From: Candidatus Heimdallarchaeota archaeon
GTDB lineage: Archaea; Asgardarchaeota; Heimdallarchaeia; Heimdallarchaeales; Heimdallarchaeaceae
Reading direction: 5' to 3'
Assembly: GCA_021399395.1 (NCBI GenBank)
Contig: JAAFKJ010000126.1
Coordinates: forward strand, 1-25,712
Length of the DNA stretch: 25,712 nt
Below the pieces are notes generated by a model. The model was given only the letters and a program-made list of their open reading frames with translations, was not told the DNA's origin and made no database searches. Below are positions 78 through 25,712 of this stretch, one piece after another; position 1 is the stretch's first letter; each line of letters opens with the position of its first letter. Position numbers and translations under genes: made by a program.

Positions 78-3000
78 ATGACATACAACAGAATAGATAA
101 GTTCAGTTCACTATTTTTCATAATATTATGTTTAAATTCAATACTATATTATGATATACAAAATCCGGATACTATAGATAACGAGAGTATATTGCCTGGT
201 TTAGATCCAGTAAACGATATCATAGTTGGTGATATACCTCTACCTGATGATTATTCATTTTTAATCAAGAAAGAGACCATACCTGGTAATTACGTCACAA
301 AAGGATTCTTTAGCTATAGTGATGCAATAACCTCTCCCAGCACAGGTGAAGGTATTGTTTATCAATGGTCAGATTATGATGAAATTAATCACGATAGTTC
401 TGGACTAATTAGAGCAAGATATGGAATCGGTGATATAGGGGTTCATCGTTATCCTAGTGCAGACGATACATATCTTCAAGGATATAACATGTGGAACGAA
501 GTTCCATATATAGGCGAATCAGTTATGTATAGCCCACAATTTACTGAAAACACAACTTTAGCTGATAAAGTTCATTATATAGCAAATATACATAGAGATA
601 CAAATGAACCTGGTCCTACTTATACATACAAAACAATGGATATTACTTACAAAATCACACTTTATCATTATTTCTCCTCTAATGACTCTATAAAGGAAAT
701 TACAAAAACTGAATTTTTACTCCCCAAAATTGGTGAAACCCAAACAGAATACTTTAGAAATTTCGAAACCAATAGTACATTTGGGACTTATACTATACCC
801 GCTGGAGATAGAATTAAAGTAACTTATGAGCTCAAATATGAATATAGTAGTGTAACTCAAGGTCATATAACTACTAATATCATGTCAGACGGTGGTGGCG
901 GTGTCAATCCACCTGGAACTAATGTATTCTGGGACATAGATGACGGTGTGCATACTCCTCCTAATCCATACGAGTTTACAAATACAGATGGTATTCTTGG
1001 TGTTCAACTCTATATGAGCGAGGAAATATATCCAGACATAAACTTCTATGGTCCAACTAATAATAGTGTATATACGACTGCAGAAACAGTAAACATAGCT
1101 GTCTCAGAAAATTCAGTTAGTTGCTATAGGTGGGATGGGGGAAGTTGGAACTCATTTGACAGTACTGCCTTAACATCATTACCAACAACTCATGAATATC
1201 ACTATTTAGAAGTTTCAGCAAGTGATCAAACATATAACAATACAAGAATTGAAGTTTTGAGATTAGGTTATGATGCAACATATGATAATTTGGTACTCAA
1301 TAATGCTGTAAGTGGAGATAGATATGCGGGTGGATACATTCTTGATTTCTCAACCTTAAATGTTCTTTCTGCAAATTATTCCTGGGATGGTGATCCAACA
1401 CCTGTTGTTTTGAACAGTCCATATGACATAACTACTCCCCAATTCAATGGTCTTCACAGTTTAGTTGTCAATACAACAGATTTATTCAAAACAAGAACTT
1501 ATAGTTTTGAATTTTACTTTGATTCGAATATCCCAGAAATCTACTTAGATAATGTTGTAAATAACTCATTCCTTCTAGCAAACAAAGAAATCAAACTTGA
1601 ATTACTAGATTATAGTGATTTTACTTGGTTGAATTATAGTTGGGATTTAGGATCAGTACAGTCATGGTCTAGTGATATTAGTAATATTTATTCAACATAT
1701 ATGCCATCTGGATTAGGTGGGCACTCTCTTGATATCTATGTCGAAGATATTTATGGACATAGTAATACTACATCTTTATGGTTTACAACTGACCCTACCG
1801 TATTTTCTGTAGATTTAAGATATATGGATGATGGAGGATATTATCAAGGAAACAATGATGTGGAATTAATTATCCAACAGAGTAATGGAGATGTATACTA
1901 TTCATGGAATGGAGGTTCTGCAACCTATACTATTCTTGTTACTGAATCATTAATTTTGTCTGGGGGAGATTCTCTACCAAACACAGAAGGTACTCACACT
2001 CTAAATATCACTACATTTGATACATTTAGCACTAGATTTGTTTATATTTACACTTTTTACGTTGATAAGACTCCTCCACAATTTATTGGAAGCTATGTTG
2101 CAGATTATAATAACACAAGGCTATTAGACACTCAAGTACTTACATTTGAACTATGGGATAATAATATCTCAGTATCATCATTAATAGTTCTGTATTCAGT
2201 AGATGAAAAAATCTTCAAGTCCTTTGATACAAGATTCGAATTTTCACTGATAGGTTTATCTAATGGTGATCATAGTTTCGATATAAAATCTCAAGATGCA
2301 GCAGGTAATGTCAACATCACTCGGATCTATTTTACCATAGATACTACTCCTCCTAATATTATTCTTGTCAATATGCCTGACGTAATCGATGATTCAGCAC
2401 ATGGCGCTTATTATGTCACTACCAATGCACTGTTCCAAGTATTTTCAAGTGATGCTGATCCTGATTACTATACTTGTTATTCATGGGATGGTCAACCATA
2501 CGAAAACTTCACAGATGATTTCAATCTTGTTTCAGCAAGTGACACTGTTGCAAATCTGACAATAAAAGCCATTGACAGCCTGGGTCTTGAGACTGTATAT
2601 ATTATTACGCTAGTTTATGATACTTCAGCTCCAGAGGTTTTTCTCTTGGATCCTTCTCCTTTAGATTCAATTAATACTCGAATACCTTTGGAGTTCAATG
2701 TAACTGATTACTCGCCATATACGGTTGCTAGTGTGGAATACGAATGGAATATCTTAGCACTCCCTGCTCCTTCATCTTGGGATCTACTAAGCGGAGAATT
2801 CTCGCTTTTGATGACAGAAGTATTTGCAGGATTATATGCCGATGAAGAATTTGCTAATTTGACTATAATTGTAGAAGATCTTTTGGGTAATTCTGATTCC
2901 TATACTTTCGATTTCAGATTTGATGCTACTGCCCCCAACATTAGTTTCTACTTTTTCAACCTAGTAAACACTACAATGGTACCTTTTGTAGAATATTTTG

Positions 3001-4880
3001 TTGTAGGCGGTACAGAAATTCACTATAATATCAGTGATGAAGTTGATATCAATACCATCGAGGTTTATTGGGATGATGAACCTGAACCTGATACAATTCT
3101 ATTTAGCCCAAATTGGACTTTCACAGTACCTCAAGATGATGGAACCCATACTCTTAGGGTAATTTTATATGATCATACTGGTACTAGTGTTATACAGCAT
3201 AATTCAGCTACAACAAATTTCACATTTACTGTTGATGACATTTCAGTTGATTTTATCAATCCTGATGATCTAGATACAAATAATCAGTTTACTATACTTT
3301 ACAACGACACATTTACTTATTCTGTGAATGTAACTGATTCATTTGATGGAGAAATAATAGGTGGTTTAGAAGTCTATATCTCTTATAATACTTATTATAA
3401 TTTTAGCGTTTCAGTTTCCAACGTTTCCACAATTTACACGGTTACTATACATGCTTTAGATGTTACAAATTCATTAGAAATGCCAATAAATGTGCAATTT
3501 TACCAAGGATCTCTTGCCAGAGGACAAACAGTAACTGTTCTTCTAACTGTAGCCCTAAGAGAAGGAATCTTAACAATTCTAGACGATACGGTTACGAGTG
3601 TAGAATTCTATGAAGAATTCGAAATTGTTGTTAATTTCCAAAATGATCTTGGAAGTAATCTCACCATAGAGAATCTATTTGCTAATGGTACTGAGGTATT
3701 AGAAATCAATGCCACAGAATCAGAATGTAGATTCAACTATTCATCCATAGATGTTGGTCATAAAGGTAATTTCTCACTTGTCATTAGTGTTGAATCTTTA
3801 TACTACTTTAGCACGTCAAGTATTAACACAACCATTACTTTAGAAATCAGACCTATACGGGTCTTCCTTCAAGTGTGGGTATCAAATACAACAATATTAG
3901 AAGGTCAGACTCTAACAATTTCAGCTAATCTAACCTATATTGATGGGTCACCTATTCCATTTGAGACTATAGCTTTTATAATTTATATATATTATAAGAA
4001 TGACACAACTATAACTCCAGAATTGGTGATGTTAGCTTTCTCAGATTATAATGACACTGAAGAAAAATCAGATACAACAAACTTTGCAGGAACAGCGACA
4101 ATTACATTTGTGTTAGATGAAACAATTGACCATATTGGCATTGGGGCTAGTTTTGCTGGAACACCAATTTTGGATGTTGTTGATTCCGATTTTAACGAAT
4201 TTGTTATTACATTTCCACCACCAGCTGAATTTCCAAAATGGTTACTCTATACCATTATTGGTGGAAGTATAGCACTAGCTGCAATAATCTCCTTTATAAT
4301 CTATAAATTCACTCGACCTAAATCATTCGAGGAATTGCTCTCCAAAGTTACACCAGAAGAGATGGCGCTCAATTATTCAATCATGTCACCAGGAATAATT
4401 CTAACAATTTTTGATCAACGTAAAGGACCTATCCCTCTTGTAGGTGATCATTCACTTGAGATTGGACGCTATATCGGTAGAATGCGCATAGGTATTGAAA
4501 ACTTCTTACTTAAGATAGCCGATCAAGCTTATTCAAGTTTGGGTTTTGAAGAACATGATGCTGGTAGAAGGGTTGGTTCAATTATTCTTCCAACTGAGAA
4601 AATGACTGGATTTATTCATGGTATCCAGATTCCAAACAAAATGGCAAGAGGAGGATTTGAGAACCTCTCACTTATTGTTTTAGCAGATGCAGAATATGGC
4701 ACTCTTCTCTTAAACTATCAAGAACACATCTATAGCGATATTGATGCTCTAGGTAAAGCTCTAAAGGAAAAGAAACCTTTGAAAGAAATTGAGGAAATCG
4801 TCAAAGCAATTAGAATAAAATCGGTACAGGTAATGATTGCTGCTCAAGGTATGGAAGAGCAACAAGCAAGTAGTGATTAA
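78..4880 (+). CDS. Large single-pass surface glycoprotein with Ig-like repeats and a cytoplasmic longin/uDENN-like (folliculin/SMCR8/NPRL2-like) domain
   Basis: N-terminal hydrophobic signal (FSSLFFIILCLNSILY). Eight Y-x-W-D/N-centred beta-rich repeats (aa ~350-997) with G-x-H-x-L and DxTxP motifs. Many NxS/T sequons. TM helix WLLYTIIGGSIALAAIISFIIY at nt 4239-4304, followed by K/R. The ~190-aa tail contains IILTIFDQRKGP and IPNKMARGGFENLSLIVL. Confidence 0.8.
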   Translation: MTYNRIDKFSSLFFIILCLNSILYYDIQNPDTIDNESILPGLDPVNDIIVGDIPLPDDYSFLIKKETIPGNYVTKGFFSYSDAITSPSTGEGIVYQWSDYDEINHDSSGLIRARYGIGDIGVHRYPSADDTYLQGYNMWNEVPYIGESVMYSPQFTENTTLADKVHYIANIHRDTNEPGPTYTYKTMDITYKITLYHYFSSNDSIKEITKTEFLLPKIGETQTEYFRNFETNSTFGTYTIPAGDRIKVTYELKYEYSSVTQGHITTNIMSDGGGGVNPPGTNVFWDIDDGVHTPPNPYEFTNTDGILGVQLYMSEEIYPDINFYGPTNNSVYTTAETVNIAVSENSVSCYRWDGGSWNSFDSTALTSLPTTHEYHYLEVSASDQTYNNTRIEVLRLGYDATYDNLVLNNAVSGDRYAGGYILDFSTLNVLSANYSWDGDPTPVVLNSPYDITTPQFNGLHSLVVNTTDLFKTRTYSFEFYFDSNIPEIYLDNVVNNSFLLANKEIKLELLDYSDFTWLNYSWDLGSVQSWSSDISNIYSTYMPSGLGGHSLDIYVEDIYGHSNTTSLWFTTDPTVFSVDLRYMDDGGYYQGNNDVELIIQQSNGDVYYSWNGGSATYTILVTESLILSGGDSLPNTEGTHTLNITTFDTFSTRFVYIYTFYVDKTPPQFIGSYVADYNNTRLLDTQVLTFELWDNNISVSSLIVLYSVDEKIFKSFDTRFEFSLIGLSNGDHSFDIKSQDAAGNVNITRIYFTIDTTPPNIILVNMPDVIDDSAHGAYYVTTNALFQVFSSDADPDYYTCYSWDGQPYENFTDDFNLVSASDTVANLTIKAIDSLGLETVYIITLVYDTSAPEVFLLDPSPLDSINTRIPLEFNVTDYSPYTVASVEYEWNILALPAPSSWDLLSGEFSLLMTEVFAGLYADEEFANLTIIVEDLLGNSDSYTFDFRFDATAPNISFYFFNLVNTTMVPFVEYFVVGGTEIHYNISDEVDINTIEVYWDDEPEPDTILFSPNWTFTVPQDDGTHTLRVILYDHTGTSVIQHNSATTNFTFTVDDISVDFINPDDLDTNNQFTILYNDTFTYSVNVTDSFDGEIIGGLEVYISYNTYYNFSVSVSNVSTIYTVTIHALDVTNSLEMPINVQFYQGSLARGQTVTVLLTVALREGILTILDDTVTSVEFYEEFEIVVNFQNDLGSNLTIENLFANGTEVLEINATESECRFNYSSIDVGHKGNFSLVISVESLYYFSTSSINTTITLEIRPIRVFLQVWVSNTTILEGQTLTISANLTYIDGSPIPFETIAFIIYIYYKNDTTITPELVMLAFSDYNDTEEKSDTTNFAGTATITFVLDETIDHIGIGASFAGTPILDVVDSDFNEFVITFPPPAEFPKWLLYTIIGGSIALAAIISFIIYKFTRPKSFEELLSKVTPEEMALNYSIMSPGIILTIFDQRKGPIPLVGDHSLEIGRYIGRMRIGIENFLLKIADQAYSSLGFEEHDAGRRVGSIILPTEKMTGFIHGIQIPNKMARGGFENLSLIVLADAEYGTLLLNYQEHIYSDIDALGKALKEKKPLKEIEEIVKAIRIKSVQVMIAAQGMEEQQASSD
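1020..3240 (+). repeat. About 8 degenerate Ig-like protein repeats (84-108 aa spacing)
   Basis: YRWDG (aa350), YSWDG (434), YSWDL (520), YSWNG (608), YSVDE (706), YSWDG (801), YEWN (888), VYWDD (996). Most are followed by a GxHxL/V...D motif. The repeat is visible at protein level only; boundaries are approximate. Confidence 0.7.
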
Positions 4881-4967: not shown

Positions 4968-6896
4968 ATGTCCTATCTATTCGATGAATTATCAGGTAAA
5001 GAAGATGCTAAAGCTACTGTTGAAGACAAGATTCTACTCATGGGTCTTCAAGCCGCTGGTAAGACAGCTATCAAAGATGTTGTCTTTTTCAATAAACAAC
5101 CTGATGAAGTAGACGACTACATGGCTACTGTACATTATCAAAGACAATTCTTAGATGAAGAACAGACAAGTATGATCATCGATTCAGGAGGACAAGAAAG
5201 TTATTGGAATGAAGCCGTAACTCATTTTCGTCATCTCGTATTTTCGAATGTTAAATTACTAGTGTGGATAGTTGATGTAACCAAACCTGAATTGTTCGAA
5301 GAATCAGAAAGACGTTTCAGTTTTACCATACGACAATATAAGAAAGAAAATCCTGATGGAAGCATTACAGTTCTATGTCATAAGGTTGACCTAGTTACTC
5401 CAGAAAAGATGATAGTTATTCATCAACATATTCGGGATATGTTTAGCGAGGGAAAATACGAAGTAGATTTTGAAAATACTAGTATCTACTATCAAGATAG
5501 TTTGAGAGAATTATTATTTACTATAATGGAAGAAGCTGGAATCAATACCAAACGTTTCGAACTGATTTCAAATCTTGGTGAAAAAGTCGAACAGAGTGAT
5601 GAATTCCAGAGTTATGTTATGGAACATCAAGAAGATCCAAGAGTTCAGCAATTGCGTGATTATCTTAATCCCGAGCCTGAAGCTCTATTACCTTCATTTG
5701 GAAAACTAAGTATGCAAGTTGATTTGAAGGAATATGATATAGTTGAAATAGTTCTTGTAGATAAGAAAACAAACTCTCCACTAGTCGGTGCTTCATCTCA
5801 GGCAAATGTGAATGCAGAGAATTCTATGGAATATCTAATAGGACTTTATGATTTTAAAAACAAAATTAAAGAAAATGGTGAAAGCTTTGATCCAACTGGG
5901 ACTGTTATGACCTCTTCAACTGGGAAAGTTCATGCAATGATTTTCAGTTTGGATGTAAACTATCTACTCATAACCTCATTCACACCAATAACAGATGAGA
6001 GGAAAGAGTTGCTATATGAGCTAATTCTTAAATTTGCTCAATCAACAGCAACAGATGCAGCACCTGCAACACCAAGTGCACCAGTTACTAAAACTGAGCC
6101 CGTTGCTCAACCCGCACCTGTAGAACAACCTAAACCAGAACCTGTTGTTGCAGCTGAAGAAGTAGTTGTAGCAGAATCTGAGGTTGAAGTTATTGAGGAA
6201 ATTCCTGTTGAGGCATCAGCTCCATTAGAGGTAGAAAAGGAACAACCTAAAGCTAAACCAATCAAGATTGAGGAAATACTAACATCAGAAGAAAAAGAAG
6301 CAGGATTTTTTGAACCAGCTGTAATGGGAGAAGAATATCTAGGTGAAGAAAAACCAATAGCTATTCCCGCACCACCTAAATCTACAAAAGCTGTAGAACC
6401 TGAACCCGTTCTCGAACCACCTAAGGAGATTGAGGAAGATGTAGTTCCTGAACCACCTAAAGTTGAACTTGAACCTGCCCCAGCTGAAATATCTCAAGAA
6501 GAAGTACAAGAAATAGTTGCTGAAGCTGTTTCCAGTGAAAGAGAAGTTAAAATTGAAGACCCGGCTCCAGCTGTAGTACCTCCAACACCAGAACCTGCAA
6601 AAGTAGTCGAGGAAGTAGTTCCCGAGCCACCCAAAGTTGACATTGAACCAGAACCTGTTCCAGTCCAAGAACCTGTAGTAGAACCTGAACCAGTTGCAAC
6701 AGTAGATATAGGTGATGGTGCAGCGATTAGCTTTTCAGCAAATGATATCAAAAATTTTGCAAATTTCTTGGTTCAGAAAAAGGAGACCATCTTGGATGAA
6801 GCAACGACAGTTGATGATATCAAAAGTATGTCTAATTTTCTATTCAAAGGAATAACTGAAGAAGAAGAACAACAAAAAGAAGAAGGAACAGATTAA
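4968..6896 (+). CDS. Rag/Gtr1-like small GTPase with roadblock-like domain and Pro/Glu/Val/Lys-rich disordered tail
   Basis: G1 KILLMGLQAAGKT, G2 MATVH, G3 DSGGQ, VFSNVKLLVWIVDV, G4 HKVD (Rag-type His), G5 TSIY. Roadblock-like segment IVEIVLVDKKTNSPLV...MIFSLDVNYLLIT. PEVK-like tail from about aa 365. Confidence 0.88.
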   Translation: MSYLFDELSGKEDAKATVEDKILLMGLQAAGKTAIKDVVFFNKQPDEVDDYMATVHYQRQFLDEEQTSMIIDSGGQESYWNEAVTHFRHLVFSNVKLLVWIVDVTKPELFEESERRFSFTIRQYKKENPDGSITVLCHKVDLVTPEKMIVIHQHIRDMFSEGKYEVDFENTSIYYQDSLRELLFTIMEEAGINTKRFELISNLGEKVEQSDEFQSYVMEHQEDPRVQQLRDYLNPEPEALLPSFGKLSMQVDLKEYDIVEIVLVDKKTNSPLVGASSQANVNAENSMEYLIGLYDFKNKIKENGESFDPTGTVMTSSTGKVHAMIFSLDVNYLLITSFTPITDERKELLYELILKFAQSTATDAAPATPSAPVTKTEPVAQPAPVEQPKPEPVVAAEEVVVAESEVEVIEEIPVEASAPLEVEKEQPKAKPIKIEEILTSEEKEAGFFEPAVMGEEYLGEEKPIAIPAPPKSTKAVEPEPVLEPPKEIEEDVVPEPPKVELEPAPAEISQEEVQEIVAEAVSSEREVKIEDPAPAVVPPTPEPAKVVEEVVPEPPKVDIEPEPVPVQEPVVEPEPVATVDIGDGAAISFSANDIKNFANFLVQKKETILDEATTVDDIKSMSNFLFKGITEEEEQQKEEGTD

Positions 6897-6898
6897 AA

Positions 6899-8128
6899 TT
6901 AAACTGGTCTGCTATCGTCATATCTTCTATATTCTAAATCACCATCTAAAAAGATTGGAATTTCTCTTATACCTTCTACACACTCATGTAGTGGAAACAT
7001 CTCAACTGAAGTTGCACCAAATCCTTTTTGGATTTTTATACCCCTCTCTAGATTCTCTGAATTTTCTACTGCAACATCAATAAGAGATTTTTGTAGATTA
7101 CGACCACATGTATCACATTTGAAACTAATACTCATCTCTATTCTCTTTTCTACAGCTTCTGATTTTGGAATACCGTTCTTGGCAAGGTAGTCTACTAAAG
7201 TTCCTTTCATCTTGACTCTAGCTCTTCCAATTAACTCGTCAGTTTTGAATAGCTCTTTCATCTCTCCTGCAAGATTCATGAAGTAATTAATTTCTTCATC
7301 AACTGTGTGTTTAGGTGGAAAAACAGTTGTAAGAATTAGATCTTGATCGATTTCTCGCATGTATACTCTGTTTTCATCAAATGAAAAGGTTGCATAATCT
7401 AATTGTAGAGTTGGTGAAAACATTTTAGCTAGATCATTTTTAAGTTTAATAAAATTGAATCCATTGTATCTTTCAGGTTGAGAATAAAGCATTAGTCCTT
7501 GAGCAGTAGATAATGATAGAAACACTAACTCTTGTTTACTGAATGTCTCTTTAATCTTAACAGACTTGGTGTCATCCTTCGGATAGACGTATGCGATTAC
7601 TTGTTGCATTGCATCCCATATGGTGTCTTCAAAAATTGAAGTCCCTACAATAGCTGCGTTAGGATAACTCGAGATTTCAAAGATATCTTTAATTGATTGT
7701 AAAACTGGTTCTCGTTTATTTGGTGGGACAACATCCATCTTGTGGGCAAACACATAGATTCTAGCATTCTCTGCTAGTTGTTTAGCATTTTCCAGAGTTA
7801 GATCAAAATAATATTTCGACCTCATGATGTTTGAAGCATCAGATATATCTACAACAAAGATGAAAGCTTTTGCATCGCTGAAAGTTCTCTCTTTGTATTG
7901 TTCGAAAACTTCATTCAGATAGTTGGATTGACCACCAACATCATAGAGGTTGATAGCACTACCTGCAAGATTGAACAGTTTTCGGTTGATACGAACAGTA
8001 GCTGGGTTCATAGATGTAGCTTCTGGGGCGAAACCCTCAAAGACAACCTGCCTAATTGAAGTTTTTCCAGATTGAGATAGTCCAAGTACTACGATTTTTG
8101 ATTCTAGTTCGCTGTCTCCACTGTACAT
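6899..8128 (-). CDS. Rag/Gtr1-like small GTPase with roadblock-like domain and C-terminal Zn-binding domain
   Basis: G1 VLGLSQSGKTS, G2 PATVR, G3 DVGGQ, TFSDAKAFIFVVDI, G4 HKMD, G5 TSIF. Roadblock-like LVFLSLSTAQGLMLYS...VYMREIDQDLILTTVF. C-terminal CDTC...HEC. GAGG-type SD upstream on the minus strand. Confidence 0.88.
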   Translation of the reverse strand: MYSGDSELESKIVVLGLSQSGKTSIRQVVFEGFAPEATSMNPATVRINRKLFNLAGSAINLYDVGGQSNYLNEVFEQYKERTFSDAKAFIFVVDISDASNIMRSKYYFDLTLENAKQLAENARIYVFAHKMDVVPPNKREPVLQSIKDIFEISSYPNAAIVGTSIFEDTIWDAMQQVIAYVYPKDDTKSVKIKETFSKQELVFLSLSTAQGLMLYSQPERYNGFNFIKLKNDLAKMFSPTLQLDYATFSFDENRVYMREIDQDLILTTVFPPKHTVDEEINYFMNLAGEMKELFKTDELIGRARVKMKGTLVDYLAKNGIPKSEAVEKRIEMSISFKCDTCGRNLQKSLIDVAVENSENLERGIKIQKGFGATSVEMFPLHECVEGIREIPIFLDGDLEYRRYDDSRPV

Positions 8129-16162: not shown

Positions 16163-16426
16163 CTAACTCCCTAACGTAAGGAAGAAATCTAGCTGTTTGC
16201 GTAAAAATGTTTCATCTGCACTTCCAATTATTCGCTGATTGTTTGGAAGAACAATTGTTGGTATGGCAACAATTTCGTATTCTCCTGCTCTGGATATGTC
16301 TTTGGTAACGTCAATAATTTCAAGTTCGAGATGATCGATTTCTTTGATTATATGTCTTAAAACACCTTCCAAATACGGACACCAGCTGCATGTGGGGCTT
16401 GTGAAGAATAATATTTTAAGACTCAT
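16163..16426 (-). CDS. Small archaeal thioredoxin/glutaredoxin-like protein (CxxC) with KaiB-like C-terminal half
   Basis: FTSPTCSWC active site, cis-Pro motif AIPT, RIIG. AGGTG SD overlaps the stop codon of the upstream KaiC-like gene. Confidence 0.85.
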   Translation of the reverse strand: MSLKILFFTSPTCSWCPYLEGVLRHIIKEIDHLELEIIDVTKDISRAGEYEIVAIPTIVLPNNQRIIGSADETFLRKQLDFFLTLGS

Positions 16427-16434
16427 TTGAACAC

Positions 16435-17841
16435 CTAATCAACTATCTCTATTAATGGCATTTTATCTTTATATTTCACTACTTTTGGTAGGAATGTTGC
16501 TCCTGTTGAACTTTTCATACATTCCATATAAGTTGTATAATCTTCTCGTGAAAATCGGATAATAATATCAGCTGTAGTTCGTAATCTAGCTAACATTTCT
16601 CTGCTGATTGCATTGAAGTTTATGAAAGAGTAGGCGACAGCTCTTTTCTCCTTGATGTTAAAGGACTGTAATGCAAAATAGCGCAAGAATTCTGTTTCAG
16701 AGAGAATATTGACATCATCGGTCAAATCACCATAGATTACGACTTTTTGCTTGGATTTCTGGAAAGCTTCCATCAATTCAACTGTAACTGATATCATATC
16801 ATCTGTAGTCATCAGCTGACTCATCTCTCTTGCCTCTATTGCTGTCACAGATCGATTATATTTGTCAATGAACACGATATTTCCTTTATTCATAAAAGGT
16901 TCAATGTCACAGTCTGCTTTTTTGAAATCTTCCAAGATTCTGGAAGAGTACATATGTACATTGGAATGTATTATGACTCCCTTCTCTTTTTCTAGATGAT
17001 AGCACAATGTGCTTAAGAATAACGGGAAGTAGTTTGTTTCTCCATCAACTTCAACTAGAACAACACTTCCAGAAGGAATACCTCCTCCTAGTAGATTATC
17101 TAATTTTTCTATACCTGAGGACTCCTCGTGTATAGTTGAAATTGGGGGTTGTTCAGATCTTAGAATAGAAATCCCATCTCTGTTGATGATAAATCTGTTT
17201 TCAAAATTGATTGGTTTGGCTGAACGCAATTTAGGTATTGAAATTCGTTTGATTAGCTGATTGTTCTTAAGTTCAGTACGAATCTTGATTACACCGTCTA
17301 CAAGAAATTCTTCTATTGTAGAATATTCCTCACTCATTTGAGATTCAGCTGTTAAGACTAGAACTGCATCTTCGTTCGTTATTTCTCTGATGAAATCCAT
17401 GAAATTACTTCTTGCAGTTTTCTCGTATTTAAAATCTGCAAAGAATGCTGAAATGGAATCAAAAATAATCATTTTTGCATTAATTTCTTTCATCTTTGTC
17501 TTTGTTCTCGCAATAATAGCTGATAGATTGAATTGATCTGTTTGTACTAAATTAGTCCCTAAAGGCTTTAGAGACATCTTTTCTAGATGCAACAATCCTT
17601 TTTCAACATATGATTCTAGATTCATATTGAATGATTTTCCATAAATCATCAATTTTTCAATATCCACTTCAGTTGAAATAAATAGAACAGGTATCTCTGC
17701 TTTTAGAGCTCCAAGTGTCATGAAAAGAGAGAGAACTGTCTTTCCAGAACCAGCGGTTCCTTTAATTGCATAGCAGAAGCTTGTCCTCAAACCTCCGTCT
17801 ATCATCTTATCAAGTTCTTCTATGCCAGTAGAAATAATCAT
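16435..17841 (-). CDS. KaiC/RAD55-like double-domain RecA-superfamily ATPase; second domain degenerate
   Basis: Domain 1: STGIEELDKMIDGG, Walker A GTAGSGKT, Walker B IIFDS, LVDGVI, PKLRS. Domain 2: SSGIEKLDNLLGGGIPSGS, with VDGETNY where Walker A should be. Confidence 0.88.
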   Translation of the reverse strand: MIISTGIEELDKMIDGGLRTSFCYAIKGTAGSGKTVLSLFMTLGALKAEIPVLFISTEVDIEKLMIYGKSFNMNLESYVEKGLLHLEKMSLKPLGTNLVQTDQFNLSAIIARTKTKMKEINAKMIIFDSISAFFADFKYEKTARSNFMDFIREITNEDAVLVLTAESQMSEEYSTIEEFLVDGVIKIRTELKNNQLIKRISIPKLRSAKPINFENRFIINRDGISILRSEQPPISTIHEESSGIEKLDNLLGGGIPSGSVVLVEVDGETNYFPLFLSTLCYHLEKEKGVIIHSNVHMYSSRILEDFKKADCDIEPFMNKGNIVFIDKYNRSVTAIEAREMSQLMTTDDMISVTVELMEAFQKSKQKVVIYGDLTDDVNILSETEFLRYFALQSFNIKEKRAVAYSFINFNAISREMLARLRTTADIIIRFSREDYTTYMECMKSSTGATFLPKVVKYKDKMPLIEIVD

Positions 17842-22761: not shown

Positions 22762-23772
22762 ATGTCTTTCTATGAGTTTCGAAAACGTATTCTAGAGGAA
22801 AAACAAAAAAGAGAAAAGCAGCAAGGTAAACAAGGCGGAACAGAGAAAGTAAGACAAGAAACTGTTATTGGGAGAAATAAGTTCAGTGTAGCACTACTGG
22901 GTTTAGAGAGAGCTGGTAAAACTTCCTTAGTTAAGAAATTACTAAAACAGGAAGATATCGTAGTGCGACCAACTTACGGGGTTAATCTTGAGAATTACCA
23001 ATACCGAGATTTAACCTTCACATGTTTTGATTTAGGGGGACATCAACCATTCCGTTTGAGTTTATGGAAGAAGTTCATTGAAAGAGCAGATGCTGTAATC
23101 TATTTAGTAGATTCAGCAGATCATGCTAGATTTGATGAGTCGAGAGAAACATTTTGGCATTATATTAATTTCGCAAAGCAAAACAGTCCAGTGATGTTTT
23201 TAGCAAACAAGAGCGATCTACCAAATTCTAAGGAATTATCAGAAATAAATGAACAATTTGAACTAGACAAGTTTTTGAGAAATCTTAGACCATTCAATAT
23301 AAAGAAGGTTTCAGCGCTAACTGGCCAAGGAGTATATGAAGCCTGGGATTGGATCGTAGACATGTTGTGTGGCGCTCAACAGTGGAAAGTGAAGATAGGA
23401 GCCGCTGTTCTTGCGGATATTGATGGTAATATTGTTTCTGAAGCCATCTTCGGTAAACCAAGTGATCAAGCTATTATCGCAAATGATTTTAAGAAACTCA
23501 AAGAATTAACCCGTTTATTTGCAATTGAATCAAAAGAGAGCATTCAATCTATAAAATTGGAAAGTCTCTTCAAAAAACATGTTAGTCATGTTAAGCGAGG
23601 AGCTTATTGTCTTTCTGTTATGATTGACCCAATTGATCCCGTTACAAGAGCTCAACAAATTCAACTGCGACTTCTAGAAAATTTCAGTCGCAATCCTGCA
23701 GAAGTACAGAAAAATTTGAATGAAGTTTTCGAGAGTAAATTCCCATTAGAAGTAGAAGGAGGACGTCGTTAA
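22762..23772 (+). CDS. Arf/Sar1-like small GTPase with C-terminal longin/roadblock-like domain
   Basis: G1 LLGLERAGKTS, G2 PTYG, G3 FDLGGH, LW..F...DAVIYLVDSAD..RFDES, G4 NKSD, G5 SALTGQG. C-terminal AAVLADIDGNIV...KRGAYCLSVMID. Confidence 0.9.
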   Translation: MSFYEFRKRILEEKQKREKQQGKQGGTEKVRQETVIGRNKFSVALLGLERAGKTSLVKKLLKQEDIVVRPTYGVNLENYQYRDLTFTCFDLGGHQPFRLSLWKKFIERADAVIYLVDSADHARFDESRETFWHYINFAKQNSPVMFLANKSDLPNSKELSEINEQFELDKFLRNLRPFNIKKVSALTGQGVYEAWDWIVDMLCGAQQWKVKIGAAVLADIDGNIVSEAIFGKPSDQAIIANDFKKLKELTRLFAIESKESIQSIKLESLFKKHVSHVKRGAYCLSVMIDPIDPVTRAQQIQLRLLENFSRNPAEVQKNLNEVFESKFPLEVEGGRR

Positions 23773-24768
23773 TTGAGTGGCTATTTGTCCTTCATCCGAG
23801 ATAAGCTTATGGCTTCTCAGGAAGAGAAGATACCTCAGTGCGCTATCCTAGGTTTAGAAGGGTCAGGCAAATCAAGCGTTATAAGTCGTCTTCTATATGG
23901 AACTGTTTCAGATGATCAACCCATGCAACAAACATGTTTCATCAATGTATCATATGGTAAATCAACAATCACAATTCTTGAAGCTGATGAAGAAACTTCT
24001 CGTGAAAGTCCTTACTTCCAAGATATACTTGGGAAAATTGATGGGATTGTTTTCGTGATTGATTCGCAATCATTAAGACATGTAGAAGCTTCCTTCGAAT
24101 ATATCTTTAGTTTGTTTGATAAGATACCACAAACAACTTCAATTTTATTCTTAGCTAACAAAACTGATCTTCCAGATAGTGTTCCTTTTCCTGATTTACT
24201 TCAGGACCCTGCTTTTCAAGTCATCATGGATGATATCAATAGATCTGTGTCAATTTATCCAGTAAGCATTAAAACTGGAGAAAACTTCTACACGGCATTT
24301 GATTGGGTTATATCAAGAATGACTGGTAGAACCCCCTTAAGAGAAGAAGTTACACCTAAAAGAGTAATCATTCTTCAGGAAGGCGGTGTTCCAGCTTTCG
24401 ATCATACATTTGACGCTTCAGTTGAAGAGCACGATAGCACACTACTTGGAGGGTTGATAAGTGCGTTAAATATTATGGCTTCCACCATATTCGAGTCTGA
24501 ATCCGTAATGGATGTAGTAAAACTTGGTGGAATGAAAATGGTAATAAGAAAAATGGGTGGGTGGAGTATAGTACTTTTTGTTGACCGAGATGATAGTGAA
24601 TCAAAAGCTCAATCTCTTGCAGAAGAGATTCTTAATGCATTTCAAGAAGAAAAAGAGCGAGATCCTTCAAAGGATCTGCCAAAACAGATTAAGTATGAAT
24701 TTCTTACTAAGATTCCTGAAATTGCTATCTTGTTAGATCAACAACCAGAAAGAGATGACGAATATTAA
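23773..24768 (+). CDS. Degenerate Arf-like (pseudo-)GTPase with C-terminal longin/roadblock domain
   Basis: TTG start immediately after the upstream TAA. G1 ILGLEGSGKSS, G4 NKTD and G5 SIKTGE are intact, but G3 reads LEADEE. C-terminal IILQEGGVPAF...LLGGLISAL...WSIVLFVD. Confidence 0.82.
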   Translation: MSGYLSFIRDKLMASQEEKIPQCAILGLEGSGKSSVISRLLYGTVSDDQPMQQTCFINVSYGKSTITILEADEETSRESPYFQDILGKIDGIVFVIDSQSLRHVEASFEYIFSLFDKIPQTTSILFLANKTDLPDSVPFPDLLQDPAFQVIMDDINRSVSIYPVSIKTGENFYTAFDWVISRMTGRTPLREEVTPKRVIILQEGGVPAFDHTFDASVEEHDSTLLGGLISALNIMASTIFESESVMDVVKLGGMKMVIRKMGGWSIVLFVDRDDSESKAQSLAEEILNAFQEEKERDPSKDLPKQIKYEFLTKIPEIAILLDQQPERDDEY

Positions 24769-24779
24769 GGAGAAGAAAA

Positions 24780-25550
24780 ATGATAAATCCTAACGTTTCA
24801 AAAGAACCTTCATTGGTGTTCAGTATCTTCAAAGATTATGGACCTGAAATCCTATTTAATAACTCTGCACTAAATGAGAATACAGCTCTAACATTGGTTA
24901 TGAGTGGTATGACTCTTGTAGAAATGGACAAAGGTTCAATCGGAAGATTGGATGGCACAAAAACCCCTAAGATGCTGGGACCAATTCCAGTTCCAGAGCA
25001 TGAACAATTAAAAGCAATAGCAATACCTTTTGAGACAGAGATTACTTCATCTTCAGATGAAAGAATAGCTGCTGCTGGTCACCGTTTATGTGTTGCATAT
25101 TTTCTATTTGAAGGAATTGCAGTAAGAGATGTTTTAGACAGTTATGGTCTAATAGAACCCTACTTTACCTTGATAGGTAGAGGGTTGCAAAAAGAATCAA
25201 GTATTGACCCAACTTCAATTAAACAACTCTATACAAGAATGATAGACATGTTCTCAGGCAAAATTCCAAGAATATTTGCAATAAATGCCGACAATTCTCT
25301 GAAAGAAATGATAGGTAAGAGATTGGAATATGCTGATACTTATCTGCTTTGTGACTTGGATAAGAATGTTATGCACATCCTTCTTTACAATCCTTCAATG
25401 GATGTATGGAGACGAAGAGATATCTATAAAGTAGCATCCGAACTAAATTCAAGCATGTTCAGAAGTTCAATGAGAATTAAAACTATCGAAGATATAAAAG
25501 AAATGGTTAGAATTCTAGAAATATTGAACATCGAAATCGCTCCAGTCTAA
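24780..25550 (+). CDS. Longin/uDENN-like N-terminal domain fused to gelsolin-like C-terminal domain
   Basis: LVFSIFKDYGP...GPIPVP...AIPF...DERI...CVAYFLF. The C-terminal RIFAIN...DTYLLCD...MHILL...RRRDIYKVASELN...IKTIE...VRILEIL resembles the gelsolin-repeat pattern. AAGGAG SD. Confidence 0.6.
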   Translation: MINPNVSKEPSLVFSIFKDYGPEILFNNSALNENTALTLVMSGMTLVEMDKGSIGRLDGTKTPKMLGPIPVPEHEQLKAIAIPFETEITSSSDERIAAAGHRLCVAYFLFEGIAVRDVLDSYGLIEPYFTLIGRGLQKESSIDPTSIKQLYTRMIDMFSGKIPRIFAINADNSLKEMIGKRLEYADTYLLCDLDKNVMHILLYNPSMDVWRRRDIYKVASELNSSMFRSSMRIKTIEDIKEMVRILEILNIEIAPV

Positions 25551-25605: not shown

Positions 25606-25712
25606 ACTCTTAAGGTACATAACTCATGAGTTAATTCTTCGAATTTTATTCGAAAATCTATTTGCACCAGTTATCATTTCTGTGTTGGTTACCCTAAACA
25701 TTCAAACAGGTA

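Follow-up and report, generated by a model that had tools for sequence, protein, structure and literature searches.

In the contig JAAFKJ010000126.1 of Candidatus Heimdallarchaeota archaeon (assembly GCA_021399395.1), analysed over its whole length of 25,712 nucleotides and hereafter called the window, we found that the three genes closest to the right-hand end, encoding the proteins P0001, P0002 and P0003, form an operon that is conserved in Heimdallarchaeia. Our interpretation, whose chances we put a little short of even, is that this operon encodes a small-GTPase switch, built as a heterodimer, together with its cognate longin regulator, probably an arginine-finger GTPase-activating protein (GAP). 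Among the evidence for it are the conservation of the gene order, the pairing of an intact with a degenerate Arf-family GTPase, and a glycine-proline (GP) motif and an arginine in P0003 that are the most conserved positions of its family.

Layout and conservation of the three-gene operon

The gene for P0001, a protein of 336 amino acids with an Arf-family GTPase domain and a C-terminal longin-type domain, spans positions 22762-23772 on the forward strand and encodes the predicted catalytically competent switch. It is followed by the gene for P0002 (331 amino acids, 23773-24768, +), a degenerate Arf-family GTPase with a C-terminal longin-type domain, and by that for P0003 (256 amino acids, 24780-25550, +), in which a longin domain bearing the GP motif and the conserved arginine is fused to a gelsolin-like domain. 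A first-pass annotation, made by a model from the sequence alone, had claimed a same-strand operon with gaps of 0 and 11 bp, and the coordinates of the open reading frames (ORFs) bear this out: the stop codon of P0001 ends at 23772 and the next start lies at 23773, while 11 nucleotides separate P0002 from P0003 (24768 to 24780). The TTG start of P0002 is consistent, because its orthologues start at the equal position and share the opening 'MSxYLSFIR'. Direct reading revealed a ribosome-binding-like site, GGAGG (23758-23762, +), 10 nucleotides ahead of this TTG and within the 3' end of the P0001 gene, and a second one, GGAG (24769-24772, +), ahead of the P0003 ATG. An AT-rich spacer of 184 nucleotides separates the P0001 gene from an upstream BacA-family gene, and the contig ends 162 nucleotides downstream of the P0003 gene. 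Since the window encompasses the entire contig of a metagenome-assembled genome that is 81.8% complete, nothing can be read past position 25712. The sequence occurs in DNA sequencing runs, which stem from a few studies of sediment and cold-seep metagenomes.

Conservation was evaluated in four alignments, comprising 24 P0003 sequences (A1), 18 P0001 sequences (A2), 14 P0002 sequences (A3) and 16 P0003-family sequences (A4). Of 400 genomes searched from the phylum, 88 matched the A1 profile at E<=1e-10, namely the window's own genome, 80 of the 82 others in its class and only 7 of the rest; genomes with several P0003 paralogues occur in two families. Gene context was compared in 29 short loci and in 40 regions that span about 10 kb each and represent eight families. 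Within the window's family, a P0002-like frame lies directly 5' of the P0003 orthologue in all 25 short loci, the end of a P0001-like frame is visible in 23 of them (in the remaining two the locus ends too early), and the complete trio is seen in the window as well as in six long loci. The order was kept in each of the 27 same-family genomes examined, four more matching genomes of the family being left out. In a second Heimdallarchaeia family, the same trio was found in 3/3 long best-matching loci and 2/2 short ones, which come from four genomes (4/4), and its proteins are 34-38% (P0001), 28-30% (P0002) and about 40% (P0003) identical to those of the window. There the trio is followed by a gene for a Ras-family GTPase of 173-175 amino acids (Pfam Ras, 4.9e-33), as recorded for trio and Ras-family gene at L056:5933-6460 (+), L057:5961-6482 (+) and L075:4319-5092 (-). 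Because the gene order recurs in 27/27 same-family genomes and in 4/4 second-family genomes, in the latter at such low identity, the three-gene arrangement is more than chance, and the trio first described from a single stretch is syntenic across both families.

The three genes might be merely co-located or co-transcribed, with products that do not interact, and the analysis did yield no direct evidence of interaction; we nevertheless regard this as very improbable, since both families preserve the gene order and its tight spacing and an analogous Rag-type arrangement exists in a separate clade of the P0003 family.

The Rag-type arrangement emerged among 39 loci with a family member called as an ORF, two of the 40 regions having yielded no such ORF. 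Ten of these are of the Arf type seen in the window, four are of the Rag type, and two have a Rag-like gene adjacent. The Rag type is restricted to four loci of a third family (L052, L049, L070 and L073) and consists of four genes with gaps of 8-35 nucleotides, which encode in order an active Gtr1_RagA GTPase (334-358 amino acids), a relative of 307-339 amino acids with a weak Gtr1_RagA match, a P0003-like longin-gelsolin protein and a second active Gtr1_RagA GTPase (309-312 amino acids). The operon lies at L052:4040-7773 (-) and L049:4034-7840 (-), and at these two loci the second protein has no GxxxxGK[ST], DxxG or NKxD, while the P0003 copies linked to Rag-type genes retain both GP and D-x-R. 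In a tree computed by maximum likelihood from the 39 proteins, the Arf-linked copies grouped in one starred clade (support 99/99), whose 13 rows are the ten Arf-linked copies and three without a GTPase neighbour; the Rag-linked clade (100/98) has five rows, which are the Rag-type copies and one of the two merely Rag-adjacent loci. Several long branches make the deeper order of the tree unsafe. The first-pass annotation had drawn a parallel with the Rag module, as two GTPases plus one arginine-bearing longin protein, and this parallel is real, since P0003 relatives of a separate clade are encoded in Rag-type operons alongside a pseudo-GTPase. Because an active GTPase, a degenerate one and a GP/Arg longin recur together with two GTPase families, we argue that they constitute a functional unit.

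Two Arf-type GTPases in a Rag-type layout

P0001 matches the Pfam Arf family (PF00025) with 134.5 bits against a cut-off of 22.3 (E 3.5e-39) over residues 38-201, and this envelope defines its GTPase domain (22873-23364, +). The closest sequences in the PDB are those of Arf1, Arl3 and Arf6, together with the Asgard ArfR entries 8ouk and 8oum. In all 18 orthologues of A2 the G1 motif GLxxAGKT, T71, D90xGGH94, NKxD and SA are invariant. By alignment with the PDB sequences, H94 occupies the position of the Arf catalytic Gln, so that the usual Gln is replaced. A His at this position is the state of Sar1 and SRbeta. The proposal that gene 1 is Arf/Sar-like was therefore correct, as judged from the Arf match, the His at the catalytic position and the invariance of D90xGGH94 in 18/18 sequences, and P0001 is predicted from these motifs to be the catalytically competent switch of the pair. 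The Gtr1_RagA model reached only 30.9 bits on P0001, far under its Arf score.

P0002 is a more distant member of the same family (Pfam Arf, 56.9 bits, E 2.3e-15). Among its 14 orthologues in A3, the P-loop residues G27, G32 and K33 as well as N129-K130 are invariant, whereas the switch-I Thr is unconserved and both DxxG and the catalytic residue are lost: the G3 region reads LEADEE in the window's family, and the second family has IDLGQD, IDIGNE or IDLGKD there. P0002 thus probably still binds nucleotide while being devoid of the hydrolysis machinery. The first-pass annotation had called it a pseudo-GTPase; it is right that gene 2 encodes a degenerate Arf paralogue, but 'pseudo' is too strong because the P-loop and NKxD are retained, and judged by its motifs 'degenerate GTPase' is the better fit.

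The AlphaFold2 (AF2) model of P0002, with a predicted local distance difference test score (pLDDT) of 76.6, comprises a GTPase domain and then a beta-beta-alpha-beta-beta-beta-alpha domain. According to DSSP on this model, the C-terminal longin-type domain extends over residues 195-296 (24355-24660, +) with the elements E195-201, E207-212, H222-240, E246-251, E254-261, E264-271 and H276-296. With the whole chain as query, the top Foldseek matches were Gtr, RagA/RagC and LokiRagO structures (8fw5_D, 8yl2, 6s6a and 4arz) over about 310 columns, while the GTPase domain by itself matched Arl and Arf (TM-score, TMt, of about 0.8); HodArfR1 and GerdArfR1 were among the PDB matches of the two GTPases. 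The Gtr1_RagA model gave P0002 18.3 bits, under its cut-off of 22 and far under the Arf score. P0001 carries a C-terminal domain of the same kind at residues 206-336 (23377-23769, +), whose fold is deduced from an hhalign match to that of P0002 (probability 89%, E 2e-6, 101 columns). Its invariant residues in A2 are F230, G231, P233, D289, D292, P293 and R296, and its scores in the protein atlas, 0.78-0.81, are at chance level. On account of the Arf matches and the homologous C-terminal longin-type domains, P0001 and P0002 can be described as Arf-type sequences in a Rag-type two-domain layout. The model further predicts a helix at residues 2-17 of P0002. A simple test of the hydrophobic moment gave no indication of an amphipathic N-terminal helix in P0001 or P0002, the moment of residues 2-16 being reached by 35-72% of shuffles.

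Proteins related to these C-terminal domains occur elsewhere. In two other families, P0003-family genes without a GTPase neighbour lie about 1-1.3 kb from genes for proteins of 200-251 amino acids (L041:4266-4868 (-), L043:6817-7566 (-) and L045:3133-3888 (-)), which have a weak phmmer match to the C-terminal longin-type domain of P0002 (4e-5 to 7e-5). Those of L041 and L043 have no Pfam match, and all three may be free-standing longin partners.

A longin-gelsolin fusion with a candidate arginine finger

P0003 has no match in Pfam or NCBIfam. The first-pass annotation had also given it a uDENN label, but no DENN, NPR2 or Folliculin model of Pfam recognises it (NPR2 and Folliculin at E up to 1). 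Its 37 close homologues are 63-96% identical, with 33 of 254-256 amino acids and the other four of 179-250; ten carry names and, as is also the case for the named homologues of P0001 and P0002, all of these belong to Heimdallarchaeaceae or Heimdallarchaeota. A representative library of 1.84 billion proteins contained 40 matches at E<=1e-3, of which 12 were at <=1e-10, and the protein atlas gave weak leads (0.82-0.89) to unnamed Asgard clusters and to one cluster with NPR2 in 19% of its members.

The AF2 model, computed from the 24-sequence alignment (pLDDT 86.2), has two domains. The first, at residues 11-136 (24810-25187, +), shows by topology and Foldseek a longin fold with the elements E11-18, E21-27, H33-49, E66-71, E74-87, H94-99, E101-111 and H112-136. 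Its top Foldseek match in the PDB is an Asgard (Loki) longin, 8yqg_B (E 4.4e-4, TMt 0.65). The next matches are chains of SEAC/GATOR1 entries (8adl_U/S, 9v0j_A, 9o5a_H and 7t3b_B), and 6ulg_N of a FLCN-FNIP2-Rag-Ragulator entry was matched as well; these identify entries and chains, not named subunits. A profile of 47 P0003 relatives, a set that includes versions with the N-terminal domain alone fused to other domains, matched no longin chain among the PDB sequences, and hhalign detected no relation between the C-terminal domains of P0001 and P0002 and either domain of P0003 (probability <1%). Longin/roadblock-type domains had been claimed for all three products, and the claim holds by modelled fold for P0002 and P0003 and by the profile match to P0002 for P0001.

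Two short motifs stand out in this longin domain. The GP motif, G21-P22 (24840-24845, +), lies at the beta1-beta2 turn according to the conservation and the AF2 model, and D93-E94-R95 (25056-25064, +; the R95 codon is aga, 25062-25064), containing the candidate arginine finger, lies between beta4 and beta5. Both read as claimed in the first-pass annotation, which had described an F-x-x-x-GP opening (F17-K-D-Y-G21-P22) and a DER loop. G21, P22, G67, P68 and D93 are invariant in A1 (24/24) and R95 is present in 23/24; in A4, G21 and P22 are found in 16/16 and D93 and R95 in 15/16 sequences; among the 47 relatives, G21 and G67 are invariant and P22, D93 and R95 are kept in at least 90%. GP and R95 are thus the most conserved positions of the family, which favours the earlier emphasis on R95. 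The GP motif has been defined at the turn or loop before beta2, beside the arginine finger (PMC12290439, section 2.4), and the location of G21-P22 fits this definition exactly. The GAP longins FLCN, NPRL2, SMCR8 and C9orf72 possess the motif, the longins of FNIP2, NPRL3, TRAPP, adaptin and DENND lack it (PMC12290439), and some Asgard longins carry the GP motif and an arginine finger together (PMC12290439, section 2.6). The spacing from G21 to R95 is 74 residues, as compared to 79 from G68 to R147 in SMCR8 (positions from PMC12290439), and R147 was seen within the ARF1 active site as a proven arginine finger, according to the available part of PMC8213707.

A different role for P0003 is that of a non-catalytic partner, such as an effector, a scaffold or a platform of the guanine nucleotide exchange factor (GEF) type as in TRAPP, Mon1-Ccz1, Ragulator or SRX-SRbeta, which would sense or set the nucleotide state of the pair but contribute no arginine finger. 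In that case R95 and GP would have a role in structure or in binding. Most longin/roadblock partners of GTPases are indeed GEFs or platforms (PMC12290439 and the accessible part of PMC3747258), P0003 is without an NPR2 or Folliculin sequence match, and operon linkage would suit a partner of any kind. We consider this role unlikely, though serious enough to be weighed, since the combination of GP with a conserved arginine is found specifically in GAP longins and not in those of the GEF type (PMC12290439), and precisely these residues top the conservation of the family.

The second domain of P0003, residues 144-248 (25209-25523, +), is gelsolin-like by Foldseek and profile. In the AF2 model, four strands come first, then a long helix, one further strand and finally a short helix. 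Its Foldseek matches include Thor ProGel (7c2f_B, TMt 0.69, probability 1.00) and the gelsolin G2 entries 6h1f_B, 1kcq and 6qw3 (TMt 0.53-0.59). Against PDB sequences, the family profile found ProGel at E 5.6e-4, the 47-sequence profile at 1.1e-4, and villin was reached at E 0.049 and 0.21; Pfam Gelsolin gave no match to P0003. N223 is kept in 23/24 sequences of A1. Because of the Foldseek matches, the longin-gelsolin fusion that the first-pass annotation had assigned to gene 3 is confirmed at the level of fold, and the profile match to ProGel agrees with its gelsolin-like half. In the own genome, the gelsolin-like half of the family profile also matched a locus designated L006 (contig C52:1217-1507, -) at E 2.9e-5; this match contains two in-frame TGA codons, and the 317-amino-acid ORF overlapping it is without a Pfam match.

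The module might chiefly be an actin regulator, in which actin would be bound by the gelsolin-like domain, under the control of the GTPase pair via the longin domain, a proposal that is compatible with GAP activity. The match to Thor ProGel by both fold and profile speaks for it, as ProGel was solved together with actin (7c2f_B), and so do the weaker matches to gelsolin G2 and villin. Pfam Gelsolin is silent on P0003, however, the window contains no actin gene, and the gelsolin-like domains in Sec23/24 are not known to bind actin, so we rate actin regulation as the chief role as quite improbable.

The gelsolin-like domain, and not the longin domain, could also supply the catalytic arginine to a Sar1-like GTPase in the manner of Sec23, for which R244 had been put forward in the first-pass annotation. 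The Sar1-like His at the catalytic position of P0001 and the presence of Sec23/24 entries among the Foldseek matches would fit such a mechanism. These entries match with TMt of only about 0.12, reflecting the shared gelsolin fold and nothing more, and R244 is kept in only 4/24 sequences of A1 and 2/16 of A4; even the best-conserved arginine of the C-terminal domain, R164, is found in 18/24 and 10/16. R244 is accordingly not supported as the catalytic residue, and we give the Sec23-like mechanism next to no credence.

Returning to a GTPase switch with a longin regulator, the mechanism might operate as follows. P0001 and P0002 would heterodimerise through their C-terminal domains in the manner of Rag/Gtr, P0002 being the partner that does not hydrolyse GTP. 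P0003 would dock its longin domain on the GTPase domain of P0001 and insert R95 as an arginine finger, like R147 of SMCR8, R78 of NPRL2 and the FLCN arginine, so that P0003 would act as a GAP or, at minimum, as a regulator of the nucleotide state. The gelsolin-like domain would take the place of the DENN or C-terminal lobe of the eukaryotic proteins, where it would either offer a second lobe for docking or connect the module to actin. More broadly, the P0003 family may consist of true arginine-finger GAPs of a pre-eukaryotic longin GAP system, which in Heimdallarchaeia serve both Arf-type and Rag-type heterodimers with one active and one degenerate subunit each; we advance this wider claim as a possible but rather doubtful one. 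A complex prediction with three full-length chains and their own alignments, in which P0003 was scored and which had no controls, returned ipSAE values of 0.01 and 0.00 and counts neither way.

Several observations weigh against the proposed mechanism. The link to the eukaryotic GAP longins rests on fold matches whose E-values are modest (4e-4 to 1e-2) together with two short motifs, because the NPR2 and Folliculin models are silent: neither NPR2 (PF06218) nor Folliculin (PF11704) matched anything in the whole own genome at E up to 10, and across the 400 genomes of the phylum neither model gave anything useful, NPR2 having weak matches in only three and none above the cut-off. R95 is a candidate equivalent of the eukaryotic arginine finger by motif and by spacing in the sequence. 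Eukaryotic longin GAPs act as heterodimers of two longin proteins, and no second free-standing longin gene is present within the operon. Furthermore, no GTPase gene is found within 300 nucleotides at 23 of the 39 loci of the P0003 family (at three of them a Ras-like gene lies about 2 kb downstream), so the family as a whole is not tied to GTPase neighbours. Finally, a search of sequencing runs found no RNA run that contains the sequence, and no expression data came to light.

Other relatives and comparison with known systems

Further relatives of the P0003 longin domain are encoded in the same genome, one fused to a response-regulator receiver domain (L004:1492-2343, -; 3.3e-16) and one with a weak PAS_9 match under the cut-off (L002:985-1875, +; 0.0042). 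These fusions agree with the available part of Liu et al. (bioRxiv 10.1101/2020.10.19.343400), which reports that NPRL2-like longins are abundant in Asgard archaea and in some cases fused to two-component domains. The remaining genes of the window are ordinary archaeal genes, such as those for a KaiC-family ATPase (16435-17841, -; 2.5e-50) and, next to it, a small thioredoxin/KaiB-like protein (16163-16426, -), with the exception of two Rag/Gtr-type GTPase genes and the gene for a surface protein at the left end. The latter (78-4880, +) encodes a protein of 1600 amino acids that has a Big_13 Ig-like domain and, around residue 1380, a hydrophobic stretch, and lies 88 nucleotides upstream of the two Gtr1_RagA-type genes (4968-6896, +, and 6899-8128, -). 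The C-terminal tail of the protein, of about 200 amino acids, contains F-DQRK-G1450-P and later M-A-R1524-G-G, with the same distance of 74 residues from G to R as in P0003. The first-pass annotation had matched this ARGG to the R95 loop, a link that the motif carries but the profiles do not support: hhalign aligned the GP motifs of the tail and the P0003 family without significance (probability 0.68%, E 0.083).

The constituents of the operon are already published for Asgard archaea, including GTPase-longin fusions, NPRL2-like longins, GP/Arg longins and gelsolins. Rag-like fusions of a GTPase with a roadblock/longin domain were described by Tran et al. 2024 (PMC10933270), who also predicted that an operonic Rag-like gene pair of MK-D1 heterodimerises, and GTPase-longin/roadblock fusions appear in the accessible part of Liu et al. 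(bioRxiv 10.1101/2020.10.19.343400). The longin-gelsolin fusion is undescribed in the sources found, and so are the operons that tie the P0003 family to Arf-type or Rag-type pairs and the recurring degenerate subunit, although the supplementary tables of Liu et al. and PMC12290439 may list the proteins; none of the three features appears in the available parts of the ArfR/AArf papers or of a 2026 structural-clustering preprint.

Nutrient, lysosome and Arf signalling in eukaryotes depend on longin-domain GAPs of unclear origin, and a 2025 survey left open whether the Asgard GP/Arg longins act on Arf-related or Rag GTPases (PMC12290439). The conserved operons offer concrete candidate pairs for both GTPase types and turn this question into a testable pairing of proteins that are small (256-336 amino acids) and expressible. 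The design with one active and one degenerate GTPase, and a gelsolin-like lobe in place of DENN, adds new details on how such complexes were assembled before eukaryotes. Should the family consist of true arginine-finger GAPs, it would represent a prokaryotic, ancestor-like state of GATOR1, FLCN-FNIP and C9orf72-SMCR8, would answer which Asgard GTPases the GP-motif longins of the survey act on (PMC12290439), and would possibly couple the switch to actin.

P0003 shares with the eukaryotic longin GAPs (GATOR1 NPRL2-NPRL3, FLCN-FNIP and C9orf72-SMCR8) the longin fold, the GP turn, an arginine about 75 residues further on and an association with Arf-type or Rag-type GTPases, its own partner being suggested by operon context. 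It differs in that its C-terminal lobe is gelsolin-like and neither DENN nor NPRL2-specific, and in being a single protein of 256 amino acids with no second longin subunit encoded alongside. The nearest known class is that of the 'FLCN/SMCR8-type' Asgard longins (PMC12290439). Like RagA-RagC and Gtr1-Gtr2, P0001 and P0002 are adjacent paralogues that combine a GTPase domain with a C-terminal alpha/beta domain of the dimerisation type, whereas their GTPase domains are Arf-type by sequence, the G3 of P0002 is degenerate, and the strand order of its C-terminal domain is longin-like (beta-beta-alpha-beta-beta-beta-alpha) as compared to the roadblock type of Rag/Gtr. With the Asgard ArfR/AArf proteins (bioRxiv 10.1101/2024.02.28.582541; PMC11914678) and with Arf, Arl and Sar1 the pair shares Arf-family sequence and fold, while unlike ArfR/AArf it carries a C-terminal longin-type domain of 130 amino acids. 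Among the Asgard gelsolins (Thor ProGel and Loki 2DGel), ProGel is matched by the C-terminal domain of P0003 in both fold and profile; in contrast to these proteins and to Sec23/24, the gelsolin-like domain of P0003 is fused to a longin and has no conserved arginine of the Sec23 type. The comparison suggests that the trio is an archaeal forerunner of the longin GAP complexes found in eukaryotes.

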